Of a stretch of 64,000 nucleotides of DNA, positions 11,278 through 62,783 are shown in pieces. Position numbers and translations under genes: made by a program. Origin of the DNA: Planctomycetota bacterium (GTDB lineage: Bacteria; Planctomycetota; MHYJ01; WSZJ01); contig WSZJ01000008.1 in assembly GCA_009773755.1 (NCBI GenBank), forward strand, positions 9,160-73,159, in the 5' to 3' direction. Under the pieces are notes generated by a model. It was not told where the DNA came from and did no database searches. It saw nothing but the letters and a program-made list of their open reading frames with translations. Each line of letters opens with the position of its first letter. The first letter of the stretch is position 1.

Positions 11278-11991
11278 ATGAAGCGCATGCGCCGCGACTC
11301 GCCAGGTTTTACGCTCATCGAGCTCCTGATCGTCCTCGCGATCGCGATTCTGCTGCTCTCGATCGCGATCACCAGCCTCTCCCGCGCGCGCCTCGCTTCC
11401 AATGAGTCCCAGGCGGTCGCGGCGCTCCGAAACGTCGCGGTCCTTCAGACGGCCTGGCGGCAGAACGACGCGGACGGGAACGGTCAGGCGGACTTCTGGA
11501 CCCAGGACTGGTCGGGGCTGCACCGTGTGGCGAACAAGGACGGGGCGCCCTGGGCGTTCATCTCCGCAGAACTCGCGAAGGCGGACGGCGCGCCGGCGTT
11601 GGGGACGACCGGGACCGCGCGTCCTCTCGTGACCGCTCCGCTGGTGACCGGAGTGGCTGTCCCGCACGCGGGGTACTTCTATCGCGCCATGACATCGGAC
11701 AACTCCAATCCTCCGATGCCCTATCAGGCCGGAGGGCCGACGAATCCCGGGAAATTCGGTTTCACGGCCTGGCCAGCGGAGCCCGAAGCGACCGGACACC
11801 ATGTTTTTATTTTGATGGAATCAGGCGCGATCTGGGCGCGCGACCTCGAAGGGCCGGGACCCGGCGGCCCGGCGCCGGCGGGGGCGACGCTGATGGGGAA
11901 TTCGAAGGGCGGGCAGCTTGCGTGGCCGGGGGCGCCCGGGGGGAGCGCGCTCAATGAGCCGGAGGAGAGCGCCTGGAAGAGCGTGCAGTGA
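11278..11991 (+). CDS. Prepilin-type N-terminal cleavage/methylation domain protein (pseudopilin-like)
   Basis: The N-terminus GFTLIELLIVLAIAILLLSIA is the classical type IV pilin / T2SS pseudopilin leader plus hydrophobic helix. Confidence 0.8.
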   Translation: MKRMRRDSPGFTLIELLIVLAIAILLLSIAITSLSRARLASNESQAVAALRNVAVLQTAWRQNDADGNGQADFWTQDWSGLHRVANKDGAPWAFISAELAKADGAPALGTTGTARPLVTAPLVTGVAVPHAGYFYRAMTSDNSNPPMPYQAGGPTNPGKFGFTAWPAEPEATGHHVFILMESGAIWARDLEGPGPGGPAPAGATLMGNSKGGQLAWPGAPGGSALNEPEESAWKSVQ

Positions 11992-12474
11992 AGCTTGGAA
12001 GGGGGGGACGTACTTTTGGCAACACGGAGGTCACGGAGTTCACGGAGGGCACAGAGGTAAGAAAACTGTGCCCTGCCAAATCCGGGGCAAGCGCGACTCC
12101 TTGGCCGTTGAGATAACGACGCAGTCCTTCGGTCAGCTTTCTGGCGTGAAAATTGATGAGAAGTCCCGCTGTGAGTTCGGAGAGATGCAGGTAGGTCAGG
12201 ATCTGGGCTTCGTGCACATCAATCAGTTCCTCAACAGCTTTGAGTTCGAGAATCAGACGCTTTTCGACGAGCAGGTCAATCCGGTAGCCTCTTCAATCGT
12301 GACGCCCTTGTACTGAACCGGAAGAACAACCTGTCGCTCGACTTTCAGGCCTCGCAACCTCAGTTCGTGTTGCAGACAGACCTCATAGGCCCCTTCAAGC
12401 AAACCGGGCCCAAGTACGCGATGGACTTCGATCGCGCCGCCGATCACTGCGTATGTCAGATCGTTGAGTTGCAT
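11951..12474 (-). pseudogene. GxxExxY-family (PD-(D/E)XK-like) gene interrupted by a 1-nt frameshift
   Basis: The N-terminal part (ATG 12474, MQLNDLTYAVIGGAIEVHRVLGPGLLEGAYEVCL...PVQYKGVTIEE) stops at 12253. The expected continuation GYRIDLLVEKRLILELKAVEELIDVHEAQILTYLHLSELTAGLLINFHARKL is in another frame (track ORF 11951-12217). The frames switch near 12262-12275. The distal ~50 codons read through the left repeat arm. Confidence 0.75.
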
Positions 12475-12511
12475 TTCTCTGTGACCTCCGTGGACTCCGT
12501 GACCTCCGTGT
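12022..12511. repeat. 35-nt inverted repeat (9-mer tandem units CACGGAGGT) bracketing the GxxExxY gene
   Basis: Arm 12022-12056 (ACACGGAGGTCACGGAGTTCACGGAGGGCACAGAG) matches the reverse complement of arm 12477-12511 at 33/35 positions. Confidence 0.9.
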
Positions 12512-12536
12512 AACTCAATGAGACCTTGCCGCTCCC

Positions 12537-14489
12537 TCAAACCGCCCCTCTCCTCTCGGCCGTCGCAACCGCCTCCATCCCCTTCGGCGTCAGCACGAGT
12601 CGCGCCTCTCCATCCGCATCGACGTACCCCGACCGGGCCAGAACTTCCATCCGCTCGCTCCAGAACGACGGCTCCCCACCCAGCCGGCGCGCGGCCTGCG
12701 TCCTCGTCAGTCGACCCGGATTGCCCGCGACCAGATTCAGGATCCGAATCGCTTCCCCATGCGGCACCACGGGTCTCGGCCCGCCGGGTAACCATGTCGA
12801 CGCGGGACCGGGGACTTCATCGATCGCCCCTTCCTCGACAAGCGCCTTCCGCGTCTCCGTCAGCCTCGACGGCCCCAATCCCTCGAGCGACCCCAGGTGG
12901 GGCGTCCGGTGCAGTCCCCTCTTCGCCGCCGGCGCAATCTGCCCGGCCAGGATCTGGTTGAGGACGATTCGCGAAATGCCGCGCGGACCGAGTTCCCTGG
13001 CCGCCGCAAGCACCGCGGCTCGCACGGCTTCGTCGTCGGGATCGCGCCGGCCTGCGTAGACCCCCATCTCCCGGGCCTGCGGATGGTCCCCGGCGGATTG
13101 CCGGCAGCTGTCGCAGTTGCGACAGTCGAGGTCGGCAGGGACGCGCTCGCCGAAGTACCTTAGAAGCGCCGCGCGTCGGCAACGGCCGCCGTCGGCCCAG
13201 GCTTCGACCGCTTCGAGACGCGCGAGATCGGCGGATTTGCGGGCGCGAAGAGACGCAAGGTCGAGGGTCAGTGGAAGGGGCGCCAGCGGGCGGCCGGGGG
13301 CGAGCAGCCCCTGTTCGATCAGCCATGCGCGGGCGGACTGCCACTTTTCCGGCGGGAATTCTCTCGGAGGAGGCGGTCCTTCATCCGACAGGAGCCGCTC
13401 GTGCACAAGCCGGATCTCCGCTTCGGTGGGATAGCGGCGCTCGATGAAGAAGTGGTGGAGCGAAGAGTCGCGCGGGCTGTGGAGCAGCCAGCACTTCGCC
13501 GGTTCGCCGTCGCGCCCTGCGCGGCCGATCTCCTGGTAATAGGCCTCGAGCGAGCCCGGGAGGTGGAGGTGGACGACGGCGCGGACGTCGGGCTTGTCGA
13601 TCCCCATGCCGAAGGCGACGGTGCCGACCACGACGCGGGCGCGGCCGCGGATCCAGGCGTCCTGATTCCGGGAGCGCTGGTCGCGCTCCATTCCGCCGTG
13701 ATACGGGACGGCTGAGATGCCGCGTTCCACGAGGGCCGTCGCGACGTCCACCGTGTCCTTCTGGCGGCCGACATAGGCGATCGCCGACCCCTCGAGGCCG
13801 AGCTCGCGCGCCGCGGCGTCGATCTTCTTCTCCTCGGGGACCCTTTTTGATCCCAGGAACAGGTTTGGCCGGTCGAACGGGTTCACGATCACGCACGGCG
13901 ATCGCAAGCCCAGCCGTTCCACGATCTCCGCGCGCACGCGTGGCGTCGCCGTCGCCGTGAGCGCCAGCGTCGCCCCCGCCCCGAGCGCCGCCGCGTGGGC
14001 CGACAGCCCGAGATAGTCAGGGCGGAAATCGTGCCCCCAGTGCGAAATGCAGTGCGCCTCGTCGACGACAAAACGCGCGACGCCGGCGCGGCGAAGCGCT
14101 GCGACGGTGCCGGGAATTGCAAGGCGTTCCGGTGAAAGGTAGAGCAGCCTCAGGCGCCCGGCTGCCGCCTCCCGGATCCGCCTCATTCCCTCCCCCGCCG
14201 GCAGATGCGAGTGGATCTCCGCGGCTCCCTGGATGCCTCTTCGCCTCAACCCGTCCACCTGGTCCTTCATGAGCGCGATAAGGGGGGAAACGACGACCGT
14301 GAGTCCGGGCTTGAGCAGCGCCGGCAGCTGGTAGCAGAGGGACTTGCCGCCGCCGGTCGGAAGGATGCCGAGGGCGTCGCGGGCGTCGAGGAGGGCCTCG
14401 ACGAGGGGTTTCTGGCCGGGGAGGAAGCGGTCGTAGCCGAAGAGCCGCTTCAATTCGTCTTCGACGTTCATGCATCCATTATATGACAT
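12537..14489 (-). CDS. recQ: ATP-dependent DNA helicase RecQ
   Basis: Motifs FGYDRFLPGQ, LPTGGGKSLCYQLPA, DEAHCISHWGHDFRPDY, VATVAFGMGIDKPDVR and a zinc-binding Cys cluster, plus a C-terminal winged-helix-like extension. Confidence 0.9.
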   Translation of the reverse strand: MSYNGCMNVEDELKRLFGYDRFLPGQKPLVEALLDARDALGILPTGGGKSLCYQLPALLKPGLTVVVSPLIALMKDQVDGLRRRGIQGAAEIHSHLPAGEGMRRIREAAAGRLRLLYLSPERLAIPGTVAALRRAGVARFVVDEAHCISHWGHDFRPDYLGLSAHAAALGAGATLALTATATPRVRAEIVERLGLRSPCVIVNPFDRPNLFLGSKRVPEEKKIDAAARELGLEGSAIAYVGRQKDTVDVATALVERGISAVPYHGGMERDQRSRNQDAWIRGRARVVVGTVAFGMGIDKPDVRAVVHLHLPGSLEAYYQEIGRAGRDGEPAKCWLLHSPRDSSLHHFFIERRYPTEAEIRLVHERLLSDEGPPPPREFPPEKWQSARAWLIEQGLLAPGRPLAPLPLTLDLASLRARKSADLARLEAVEAWADGGRCRRAALLRYFGERVPADLDCRNCDSCRQSAGDHPQAREMGVYAGRRDPDDEAVRAAVLAAARELGPRGISRIVLNQILAGQIAPAAKRGLHRTPHLGSLEGLGPSRLTETRKALVEEGAIDEVPGPASTWLPGGPRPVVPHGEAIRILNLVAGNPGRLTRTQAARRLGGEPSFWSERMEVLARSGYVDADGEARLVLTPKGMEAVATAERRGAV

Positions 14490-25584: not shown

Positions 25585-25893
25585 GTGAACCTTTTCCTGC
25601 GCGGCACGCTCATGGCCGTCACGTGGATCGCCGTCGCCGGCGGCGTGGTGTGGGTAGCTTTGAGGTGGACCAACGCGATCGGTGGCGTGCTGTGCGCGGG
25701 GGCGGTGCTGCTCCCGTTCGTGTACGTCATGGTCTGCACGCTCTACCCCGCCTGGGGCGACACGAAATGTCCGCGCTGCGGGAAGCCCGCGCTGCGGCGG
25801 CCGGACCCGAAGAACCCGCTTGGAGTGATCTGCGACGCGTGCGGTTACGAGGACCCCGAGCTATACCGCGCGTATCTGGACGAGATGCAGTGA
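25585..25893 (+). CDS. Small membrane protein with a C-terminal zinc-ribbon (CPRC...CDAC)
   Basis: GTG start, two hydrophobic helices, then CPRCGKPALRRPDPKNPLGVICDACG. Confidence 0.5.
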   Translation: MNLFLRGTLMAVTWIAVAGGVVWVALRWTNAIGGVLCAGAVLLPFVYVMVCTLYPAWGDTKCPRCGKPALRRPDPKNPLGVICDACGYEDPELYRAYLDEMQ

Positions 25894-26411
25894 GGGCGTA
25901 GTGGGTAGGAGGTAGGGGGTAGAAACGACCCGGCGTTCAGCCGCGCGCTTCCTGCGCGTCGCGTTCCGCCTCGAAGACGGCCAGGCGGGGGTAGGTCAGG
26001 TCGAAATGATGATCCCCAGTCGTCCAGTGCAGGACGATAAAGTGGTGGATGAGGTCCGACACCAGGAGTGCGACGCCGATGCGCATCGCCCAGACGATCG
26101 GCCAACCGTCATATGGTACGGCGAGCGCGCCGACCGAGGTTGCTGCGCCGACGTAGCCATGATGGATGCGTACGCCGAGCGTCAGCGGGGCGAGGAATGC
26201 GGTGTCGCGGGTCGACTGCATGTCGAGCCCCCAGCGGAAGGCGCAGGTGACGGCCTCGAACGCGGCCGTCAGGGCGACGATCCAGATCAGGTCGGTCATG
26301 ATGATCGGCAACTCCACCAGGGTGGCGACGCCGGATTCTACCGAATCCTGCCCGATGCCTCATCTGCCTTTTTGCCTTTCCTACCCCCTACCTCCTACCC
26401 ACTACCCCCTC
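25892..26411. repeat. Inverted repeat (7-mer tandem units GTAGGNG) bracketing a small membrane-protein gene
   Basis: 25898-25922 (GTAGTGGGTAGGAGGTAGGGGGTAG) is the exact reverse complement of 26381-26405. It extends to 31 nt (25892-25922 / 26381-26411) with one mismatch. Confidence 0.9.
25937..26317 (-). CDS. Hypothetical integral membrane protein (126 aa)
   Basis: Three to four hydrophobic helices and non-biased composition. No family recognised. Confidence 0.5.
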   Translation of the reverse strand: MELPIIMTDLIWIVALTAAFEAVTCAFRWGLDMQSTRDTAFLAPLTLGVRIHHGYVGAATSVGALAVPYDGWPIVWAMRIGVALLVSDLIHHFIVLHWTTGDHHFDLTYPRLAVFEAERDAQEARG

Positions 26412-34570: not shown

Positions 34571-34585
34571 CCGATGAAATGATAC

Positions 34586-34768
34586 GCGGGCAGGCGGGCA
34601 AGCGGGCGGGAAAGGCTGCGGGCGTAAGGGCTGCGGGCGGGCGGGCAGGCGGGCGGGCGAAAGGACCAGCGGGCGGGCGGGCAAGCGGGCAAGCGAAAGA
34701 AAAGACGACGTCCGAAATCCGCAGGCCGTTTTTTTTCGCCCGTCCGCCCGCTCGCCCGTCCGCCCGCG
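34586..34768. repeat. G-rich octamer (GCGGGCRR) tandem arrays in three blocks, plus one inverted C-rich block
   Basis: The G-rich blocks are at 34586-34610, 34615-34659 and 34667-34695, separated by GAAAGG-like linkers. The C-rich partner is at 34737-34768. The element lies in the divergent hpnC / peroxiredoxin intergenic region. Confidence 0.85.
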
Positions 34769-34848
34769 TACCGTTGACCTCGTCACCGCCGCTTCCTATG
34801 ATCCGCCCCTCGTATTTCCTGAAGCAACCGCTTTACAAGGAGCCCTCC

Positions 34849-35319: not shown

Positions 35320-35468
35320 ACGCCGAGTTCGGCTGAGGGGCGCCGGCGGTATGCTCACCGGGCCGCGCCGTGTGCATGGGTAGATCCCGACAGGTGAACC
35401 TTCGTCGAGGGAGCATTCTGTGAAAGCAGCCGCCGCCCTGCTGCTGAGGCACTTCGGAGCAGTTCGAG

Positions 35469-36047
35469 ATGGTTTTCGACGGGACCATCTCGATCGACCG
35501 CGTCGGAGACGACGGTCACGGCGAAGGACGCATGACCTTTTCGCGGATAGACGGAAAGGTGCGGACGAGCAAAGCGGCCATCAGGATTGACCTCAACACA
35601 ATCCAGCTGAAAGGGTATTCGCTTCGCTGCATCCTCACGGAGAGGGGCAATTTCGGCCTTGAATACCCACTCTGCCCGATGGGAAGAATAGACCTGTCCG
35701 AGAATTTCCGGGACTTGTTCATGGAATTTCCAAAGTCCCCTCTCTCCGCCGGGACATCGTGGACGGCGCGGCGCAACGGACTGACCGTGGCGCTGTCGCT
35801 GAAATCTCCCGGCGAAACGGTTCTGGCCATCGAAGGCGCACCCGACCCGGCCGAAATCGAAGTTCCCTCGAAGGCGGGCGGAATCCGGACAGCGTCAGGA
35901 GCGATTCACTTCCGATTCGATCCGGATGCCGGTTTCCTGACATCGATCGAAGAGGACGTCTCCTTCGAAAGCGTGAAACAGCCCGGCCCGGACGAAGTAG
36001 TGACGAAGCGGGTCTTCCGGCGCACGCTGAACGTCGAGAGGCGCTGA
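35469..36047 (+). CDS. Hypothetical protein (192 aa)
   Basis: Only ORF with non-biased composition at this position. An in-frame stop lies just upstream of the ATG. G+C is visibly lower than in the neighbours. No motif recognised. Confidence 0.45.
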   Translation: MVFDGTISIDRVGDDGHGEGRMTFSRIDGKVRTSKAAIRIDLNTIQLKGYSLRCILTERGNFGLEYPLCPMGRIDLSENFRDLFMEFPKSPLSAGTSWTARRNGLTVALSLKSPGETVLAIEGAPDPAEIEVPSKAGGIRTASGAIHFRFDPDAGFLTSIEEDVSFESVKQPGPDEVVTKRVFRRTLNVERR

Positions 36048-36058
36048 GCGCCCGAGTT

Positions 36059-38680: not shown

Positions 38681-38860
38681 GGAAAAACGGCAACGACAAA
38701 TCCCAAATCCCAACTCCAACTCCAAATCCCAAGGTGCTGATTGCACGAACGGTGAGGCCTGGGAACCCGGAGCAAATCTCTAGAGGTACACCTTGTTCAA
38801 CGGCTTTTTGGGATTTAGGGTTGGAGTTGGGATTTGGGGTTGTCCTGGTCGTTTTCCCAC
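38681..38860. repeat. Imperfect inverted repeat of AAATCCC/AACTCC units with a 75-nt spacer
   Basis: The core arms are 38696-38732 (ACAAATCCCAAATCCCAACTCCAACTCCAAATCCCAA) and 38808-38843 (TTGGGATTTAGGGTTGGAGTTGGGATTTGGGGTTGT). The flanks GGGAAAAACGGCAACG and CCTGGTCGTTTTCCC are partly complementary. The element sits between the lysS stop and the permease start. Confidence 0.85.
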
Positions 38861-50082: not shown

Positions 50083-50264
50083 CCGTTCCCTTTCCCTTTC
50101 CCTTTCCCGTTCCCGTTCCCGACTGCGACGGCGCAGCGCGCACCCGCTTTGATCTCTCGCGCCGCAAATGACCCGACGCCCTTAATCTTCGCCGGCGTTG
50201 ACGCTTGGAGAATTCGGTGCCTTGTCGCAATCGGGAAAGGGAACGGGAAAGGGAAAGGGAACGG
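50083..50264. repeat. Inverted repeat of CCCTTT/CCCGTT hexamers with a 108-nt spacer
   Basis: The arms are 50083-50122 (CCGTTCCCTTTCCCTTTCCCTTTCCCGTTCCCGTTCCCGA) and 50231-50264 (TCGGGAAAGGGAACGGGAAAGGGAAAGGGAACGG), with 6 versus 5 units. The element lies between the FHA gene stop and the radical SAM gene start. Confidence 0.9.
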
Positions 50265-62685: not shown

Positions 62686-62783
62686 GAACGAAAAACGAAA
62701 AACAAAAAACGAAAAGAAAACGACCGCGGTCGCTGTACTTTTCGTTTTTCGTTTTTCGTTTTTTGTTTTTCGTTTCGTTGTTC
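62686..62783. repeat. A/T-rich imperfect inverted repeat of CGAAAAA units
   Basis: The left arm is 62686-62716 (GAACGAAAAACGAAAAACAAAAAACGAAAAG). The right arm is 62738-62783 (CTTTTCGTTTTTCGTTTTTCGTTTTTTGTTTTTCGTTTCGTTGTTC). The ~21-nt spacer contains CGACCGCGGTCG. The element lies in the mgtE leader. Confidence 0.85.

Follow-up and report, generated by a model that had tools for sequence, protein, structure and literature searches.

Between a recQ-family helicase gene and a convergent pilin-like gene lies what we consider, with moderate confidence, to be a small selfish cassette, present as a decaying copy and made up of a heptad array, a gene for a nuclease of ~125 aa and an inverted heptad array. 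The gene is a pseudogene member of the GxxExxY family, its reading frame being broken, and the arrangement of gene and arrays is shared by family members from many phyla, a conserved architecture that apparently has not been described before. Below, the window means the whole stretch of DNA that was analyzed (64,000 nt), and positions refer to it unless a locus is named.

The two 35-nt arms of the inverted repeat (12022-12056 vs. 12477-12511) are complementary at 33 of 35 positions (94%) and are separated by 420 nt that hold only a GxxExxY (TIGR04256/PF13366) gene, as the preliminary description had proposed. Tandem Repeats Finder resolved each arm into a four-copy tandem of a 9-nt unit, CACGGAG plus 2 nt, and both mismatches between the arms sit in the 2-nt spacers. 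The ungapped inverted-repeat score was 29, whereas 30 windows of 64 kb simulated with a Markov model scored no higher than 18. Six occurrences of CACGGAGNNCACGGAG were found in the window, where 1.3 were expected, and all six are in the cassette arms. Other parts of the described layout also held: the ATG (12472-12474) is located 2 nt inside the right arm, that arm on the mRNA-sense strand (ACACGGAGGTCACGGAGTCCACGGAGGTCACAGAG) contains GGAGG twice, and the cassette sits between convergent genes (Table 1). In ENA the window is part of the metagenome contig k139_592919 (298,761 bp). For RecQ and the acyl-CoA dehydrogenase, the closest relatives with a source label were Planctomycetota MAGs. As the source is a metagenome assembly, chance similarity or an assembly artefact had to be considered. 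This explanation is refuted, and we give it practically no weight: the inverted-repeat score is far above the simulations, the 550 nt comprising cassette and spacers are identical in two further assemblies, of which the Logan assembly is independent, and an orthologous copy is present in a sister species (see below).

Table 1. Positions of the cassette, its parts and its neighbours in the window, and of hairpin arrays in two other GxxExxY loci
Feature	Position	Strand	Details
5' arm (gene sense)	12477..12511	-	CACGGAG x3 + CACAGAG x1, 9-nt period, ends 2 nt before ATG
3' arm (gene sense)	12022..12056	-	CTCTGTG cc CTCCGTG aa CTCCGTG ac CTCCGTG, reverse complement of 5' arm
Outer spacer, recQ stop codon to 5' arm	12512..12536	-	within 545-nt inserted segment
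Outer spacer, 3' arm to pilin-like stop codon	11992..12021	-	within inserted segment
N-terminal half of pseudogene	12289..12474	-	residues 1-62, GxxExxY motif G24-E27-Y30
Frameshift site	12288..12290	-	GGG run minus one G
C-terminal half in shifted frame	12104..12289	-	residues 63-124, D67, E77-x-K79, Q91xxxY95
Read-through tail	11951..12103	-	~50 codons, through 3' arm into pilin-like 3' end
recQ-family helicase	12537..14489	-	host gene directly upstream, same orientation as cassette
Prepilin-type N-terminal / DUF2950 protein (pilin-like)	11278..11991	+	convergent host gene
Hairpin arrays	L066 200-1780; L050 1900-4420		at least 9 units of ~122-140 nt or ~225 nt

From its ATG the reading frame runs for 73 codons to a stop at 12253, and the C-terminal half of the product is encoded in a different frame. 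One G of a GGG run has been lost at ~12288-12290, the sense strand reading GAAGAG-GC-TACCGG where relatives have ...GGC TAC CG... The same frameshift was found in three assemblies, the independent Logan assembly included, and it therefore reflects the organism's own sequence and not an error of assembly. When the two frames were joined, the product matched TIGR04256 with 144 bits over profile positions 1-114 of 116 (cut-off 35) and PF13366 (PDDEXK_3) with 141 bits. It has the GxxExxY residues G24, E27 and Y30 as well as the nuclease residues D67, E77, K79, Q91 and Y95, all of them conserved in an alignment of 19 sequences. The family profile ends at residue 120 of the joined product, the native stop codon of the gene is absent, and the frame continues for ~50 codons more. 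An ORF without in-frame stop, reading through the left arm to give the odd 'TSVPSVNSVTSV' peptide, had been described earlier; the read-through of the left arm exists, but the ORF is discontinuous, and both tail and peptide are encoded by the second frame of a pseudogene. Programmed frameshifting was considered and ruled out: a slippery site is absent, the native stop is also gone, and the copy in the sister species is deleted.

Orthologues of the recQ junction were obtained via protein search, and the gene order around recQ is kept in five relatives. In three related species (L176, L177 and L178), whose RecQ is 75-77% identical to that of the window, the stop codons of recQ and the pilin-like gene are 4, 0 and 10 nt apart, and neither heptads nor an inverted repeat are found at the junction. 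In the sister species (L174, RecQ 87% identical) the same site carries CACGGAGttCACGAAGgaCACGGAAgaCACAGAAaaATG, followed by ~30 codons of the gene and, immediately after these, CTCTGTGctCTGCGTGaaCTCCGTG. What remains there is the F arm, the ATG, the short stretch of ~30 codons and the R arm, the greater part of the gene having been lost by deletion. Between window and sister species the arms are 79-88% identical and the adjacent spacers 56-67%, where gapped alignment of unrelated sequence gives roughly half. Since the empty junctions have no hairpin, the arms were not pre-existing at the site. Comparison of empty and filled junctions further shows that the gene and its arms entered the recQ/pilin junction as a single ~545-nt unit, that this insertion is older than the split of the two Planctomycetota species and dates to their common ancestor, and that both copies are decaying, the one in the window through a 1-nt frameshift and the one in the sister species through internal loss of sequence. 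The L174 copy likewise shows that internal deletion of a cassette can yield a gene-less hairpin. A comparison of this junction with relatives lacking the cassette had been suggested as a check, and the three empty sites together with the same-site copy in the sister species bear out the idea of a discrete insertion bounded by an inverted repeat. Counting against a mobile cassette, no target-site duplication was visible between filled and empty sites, although the outer spacers have diverged so much that one could have become unrecognisable, no defined cleavage site was found, and within-species presence/absence polymorphism was not seen for P0002, which had a single context in 22 contigs.

To place this copy in its family, we sampled 80 GxxExxY loci in genomes from many phyla, of which 75 had enough flank for inverted-repeat scoring. 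Control DNA came from a metagenome scan with RecQ (80 loci, 566 kb), in which the best matches were 32-52% identical and no orthologous junction was found. The best flanking inverted repeat had a median score of 17, compared to 8 in windows shifted within the same loci, and 69% of the GxxExxY loci exceeded the 99th percentile of the control. Nearly all arms consist of tandem CACAGAG, CACGGAG, CACGAAG, CGCAGAG or CGCGGAG heptads. Across the 80 loci CRCNRAG peaks upstream of the gene (-100 to 0) and CTYNGYG downstream of it (0 to +60), and at least two heptads on each side were present in 54/80. Earlier it was anticipated that other GxxExxY copies would be flanked by 'similar but different' oligomers; comparable inverted repeats are indeed there, but they are built from variants of one heptad, CRCNRAG. 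The arms (112 in total) hold 2-5 heptads (mode 3) with a period of 8-11 (mode 9), and their outer boundary falls between TTyAC and CACAGAG. In the 44 elements of standard polarity, arms are ~30 nt long and enclose a median of 404 nt.

We define the cassette by at least two upstream CRCNRAG heptads with a period of 8-11, their complement downstream, and a ~370-700-nt interior that contains the gene only. The window copy, with 4+4 heptads, a period of 9 and an interior of 420 nt, is a typical member of these heptad-bracketed GxxExxY cassettes. Opposite polarity was seen in 7/80 loci, with the gene between hairpins instead of inside one, which speaks against a mobile cassette. In the opposite-polarity loci that were inspected (L008 and L033), a further heptad array lies outside and the gene lies beyond the bracketed segment; in L023 and L056 there are hairpins on either side of the GxxExxY gene. 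Several family proteins (P0002, P0010, P0013, P0024, P0040, P0074 and P0095) carry terminal repeat peptides such as TExTExTE, HGEHGGE and AISAISAVS. These look like translated heptad arrays, i.e. gene calls extending into the arms, and this would explain the odd N- and C-terminal repeat peptides annotated on many family members.

A less specific origin of the arms is that they are one more tandem-heptamer hairpin of the host, in or beside which the gene landed by chance or through a preference for hairpins. The window holds six other tandem-oligomer hairpins, at a density of 109 per Mb compared with 10.6 per Mb in the 566 kb of unrelated control loci, and paired heptamer repeats exist in Xanthomonas (PMC4692102). 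For this locus, however, the reading is contradicted by the empty orthologous sites, which have no hairpin, and the other hairpins of the window are built of unrelated units. In addition, CRCNRAG hairpins were found in GxxExxY loci only: among inverted repeats with periodic arms they account for 23/29 in those loci and 0/6 in the controls, and the 566 kb of control DNA contained neither a CRCNRAG hairpin nor a GxxExxY gene. We regard a generic host repeat as very improbable.

The pattern of mismatches between the arms was analyzed in 41 elements. Complementarity between the arms is 95.8% at heptad positions but 64.3% at spacer positions, and among mismatches on the sense strand G·U is not favoured over A·C (35 vs. 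37). This pattern places the constraint on the repeated word and not on continuous pairing of the arms. Had the sense-strand RNA been selected to form a helix, G·U would be expected to exceed A·C. The heptads are equally conserved in Bacteroidota, and the arm lies anywhere from -6 to 162 nt from the start codon, depending on the element.

These data bear on the possibility that the arms act at the RNA level, by forming a long-range stem in a read-through transcript that either hides the ribosome-binding site or provides an RNase III site by which the cassette is excised, like the 23S rRNA intervening sequences. For the window RNA, the minimum-free-energy and the centroid structure both pair the arms (z = -3.9) and enclose the ORF, GGAGG is found 10 nt upstream of the ATG, and there is one compensatory spacer change across the arms between the window and L174. 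Several family cassettes also lie inside operons, and the upstream neighbour is co-oriented with the cassette in 54/73 family loci by a crude longest-ORF test. The poorly paired spacers, the lack of G·U excess and the variable distance to the start codon nevertheless speak against such a stem, as does the conservation of the motif sequence from phylum to phylum, which would not be required for a plain stem. Rfam families gave no match either, in a permissive scan of the region and a gathering-threshold scan of the whole window. On balance we find an RNA-level bracket unlikely. The same evidence divides the earlier proposal that pairing of the arms sequesters the Shine-Dalgarno sequence. Sequestration is possible in this copy, where GGAGG precedes the start codon and the predicted fold brings the arms together, but it leaves the family unexplained, given the conservation in Bacteroidota, the range of distances and the 7/80 loci of opposite polarity, and the constraint lies on the heptad word more than on pairing. 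It would be at most a side effect, a by-product and not the reason for the arms.

The region 11800-12800 contains no promoter-like or terminator-like site. Expression of the cassette is likely to occur by read-through, with recQ as the probable source here. The cassette would thus have no promoter of its own and would be transcribed from the upstream host gene, and masking of the ribosome-binding region by paired arms in the RNA would be a secondary effect. A regulatory reading of the arms is largely not supported, whereas the cassette reading is supported.

Structure prediction for the GxxExxY protein gave a model with a pLDDT of 95, and the closest fold matches were Cas4 SSO0001, lambda exonuclease and the AdnAB nuclease domains. 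The fold search returned solely generic PD-(D/E)XK relatives, PADLOC gave a weak Cas4 match only, and a PDB sequence search with the family profile had no match. We know of no activity for any GxxExxY protein, which also counts against the proposed cassette. The TIGR04256/PF13366 family is very large; one search returned more than 7,900 cluster representatives. PF13366 is listed as of unknown function (PMC3424549). In the literature GxxExxY, PF13366 and TIGR04256 are barely mentioned, and the flanking repeats appear in none of the papers searched, database family descriptions aside; strings of the heptad motif retrieved only unrelated papers or primer sequences.

The heptad variant also follows the protein. 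Pairs of heptads are identical in 54% of cases within an element and in 21% between elements. The CACGAAG elements, which come from at least seven phyla, all (11/11) encode M[EKQ]FDxLSN[RK]VIGCA proteins (permutation p<=0.0005), and a 37%-identical paralog carries CACGAAT arms. This co-variation could come from shared descent alone. From the constraint on the word, the G·U result, the tracking of variant and protein, and the nuclease fold, we infer that the heptad arrays are putative sequence-specific recognition sites of the encoded nuclease.

The arrays could instead be autoregulatory operators with no part in mobility, where the nuclease-fold protein binds the heptads flanking its own gene and loops or blocks transcription, so that a potentially toxic product is kept low. 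The constraint on motif and not on pairing, the heptad variant that follows the protein subfamily, and the position of the arrays next to start and stop codons are all in line with operators. What they leave unexplained is the joint arrival of arms and gene at a new site, as well as the gene-less hairpins, long hairpin arrays and arms around other genes that are described next, and we therefore judge this explanation to be distinctly unlikely.

Hairpins with CRCNRAG arms and a short loop, but no gene, were found in L063 and L073. In L066 and L050 such hairpins form long tandem arrays with the gene in one of the units (Table 1). The same heptads also enclose other genes, a further point against a mobile cassette. 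In L008 (686-1630) CRCNRAG arms surround a 154-aa ORF beside the GxxExxY gene; it has a D...ExK pattern and no Pfam match. In L072 (1789-2965) they surround a gene pair next to the GxxExxY gene, which by eye resembles a DUF433 protein and a PIN-like protein in a toxin-antitoxin-like arrangement. A Chloroflexota MAG (L052, 3990-4456) has seven AGTGGGT upstream and three ACTACCC downstream of a 122-aa gene, the product of which resembles, again by eye, the four-helix-bundle or 23S rRNA intervening-sequence protein family. Its heptad is nearly identical to that of a second inverted repeat in the window (25892-26411). Phages as a vehicle of GxxExxY genes are not evident, with one relative in 2.9 million viral contigs.

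The second inverted repeat (25892-25922 / 26381-26411) has arms of 31 nt that are 97% complementary and composed of GGTAGGN/GGGTAGT heptads, and it encloses a 126-aa membrane-like ORF on the minus strand (25937-26317). The ORF has orthologues in the corresponding position both in the sister species (L179), where the upstream heptad array alone occurs, and in an outgroup (L180/L181), where there is no array. This distribution suggests that the gene was there first and that the arms formed around it in situ. A mobile insertion was ruled out for 25892-26411, as the ORF is resident and has been inherited vertically. A different heptad inverted repeat in the same genome can accordingly bracket a resident gene, which is evidence against a mobile cassette: heptad arms need not be transposon ends, since those at 25892-26411 seem to have an in-place origin.

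The window contains further repeats of this general kind. A hairpin with arms of GCGGGCRG 8-mers (34583-34770) lies between divergent genes and also occupies the orthologous site in the sister species (L182, about 2860-2970), where unit number and spelling differ. Gene-less hairpins were observed at 38702-38838 (CAAATCC-type tandem arms, loop of about 75 nt), 50083-50264 (CCCTTTC/CCCGTT-type tandem arms, loop of about 95 nt) and 62687-62775 (AACGAAA tandem arms, loop of about 22 nt). A rule by which the purine-rich arm comes first in the hairpins of the window was dropped, as those at 38702 and 50083 start with the pyrimidine-rich arm. Separately, a ~690-nt segment at ~35400-36050, which carries an ORF of 192 aa on the plus strand (35469-36047), is missing from the orthologous position in the sister species (L182), and no flanking repeat was seen around it.

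Taken together, our results argue for a small selfish cassette at the recQ/pilin junction. Its unit would consist of 2-5 heptads (CRCNRAG, period 8-11), a gene for a Cas4/RecB-like PD-(D/E)XK protein and the same array inverted. The encoded nuclease would recognise the heptad arrays, and spread or maintenance would proceed as with transposon terminal repeats or REP sequences; this mechanism of mobility is one that we infer. More tentatively, and with clearly less confidence than for the copy in the window, we suggest that these are undescribed miniature mobile cassettes of many phyla, in which a Cas4/RecB-like nuclease recognises its own end heptads and leaves gene-less hairpins and arrays behind, and that inverted heptad arrays may commonly bracket small selfish genes, such as those for the 'IVS' protein or toxin-antitoxin pairs. 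The heptad array is a conserved DNA partner and gives a first handle on the role of the GxxExxY protein. The arrays and their tracking of subfamilies suggest a new small selfish element that settles in operons and between genes, and remnants of such elements would account for a class of intergenic hairpins and hairpin arrays.

None of the known systems, REP/RAYT, TIR transposons and MITEs, homing endonuclease genes or 23S intervening sequences, fits the cassette as a family. As in REP/RAYT systems, one small nuclease-type gene lies between inverted short repeats, and the repeats also occur without the gene as dispersed or clustered hairpins. RAYTs, however, are HUH/Y1 proteins (IS200/IS605-like), whereas the fold here is PD-(D/E)XK and Cas4/RecB-like; no HUH/Y1 transposase was found between the arms, where Pfam and NCBIfam gave PDDEXK_3/GxxExxY only. 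REPs are moreover GTAG-containing palindromes in place of heptad arrays, and the GxxExxY cassette has, in distinction to REP/RAYT, been spread over many phyla by transfer. Terminal inverted repeats are present in the cassette as in TIR transposons and MITEs, which share with it inverted ends of several subterminal binding-site repeats and intergenic insertion; gene-less derivatives by internal deletion, as in MITEs, are directly seen in L174. Unlike in TIR transposons, the sole gene encodes a 125-aa nuclease with PDDEXK_3 as its only domain, and no DDE or other transposase of known class was found in the cassette. A target-site duplication was not visible across the diverged outer spacers. The arms also differ from integron attC sites in being tandem heptads instead of a single imperfect palindrome, and there is no integron integrase among the called neighbours of the cassette.

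Free-standing homing endonuclease genes, including that of the PD-(D/E)XK enzyme I-Ssp6803I, are likewise small selfish nucleases with a life cycle of invasion, fixation and decay, and the locus studied here resembles them in being present or absent at one site among relatives, with degenerate copies. It differs in that the empty site has no recognisable target, and the heptad arrays have no counterpart there. 23S rRNA intervening sequences carry a four-helix-bundle protein (TIGR02436/PF05635) and, like the cassette, comprise a small ORF bracketed by complementary ends within a host transcript. The four-helix-bundle-like gene within inverted GGGTAGT heptads in L052 may link the two, a connection drawn from this one locus. 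The cassette differs in its location between protein-coding genes, and none of the Rfam families, those for rRNA among them, reached threshold anywhere in the window. Similar in the form of the repeats are the paired heptamers described as GGGAATC in Xanthomonas (PMC4692102) and as TAACTGA in Beggiatoaceae (PMC4679880), which are tandem and intergenic, often form convergent stem-loop pairs and sometimes lie next to start codons. Those repeats have one unit per genome and no tie to a gene family, whereas the heptads described here are tied to GxxExxY genes across phyla.
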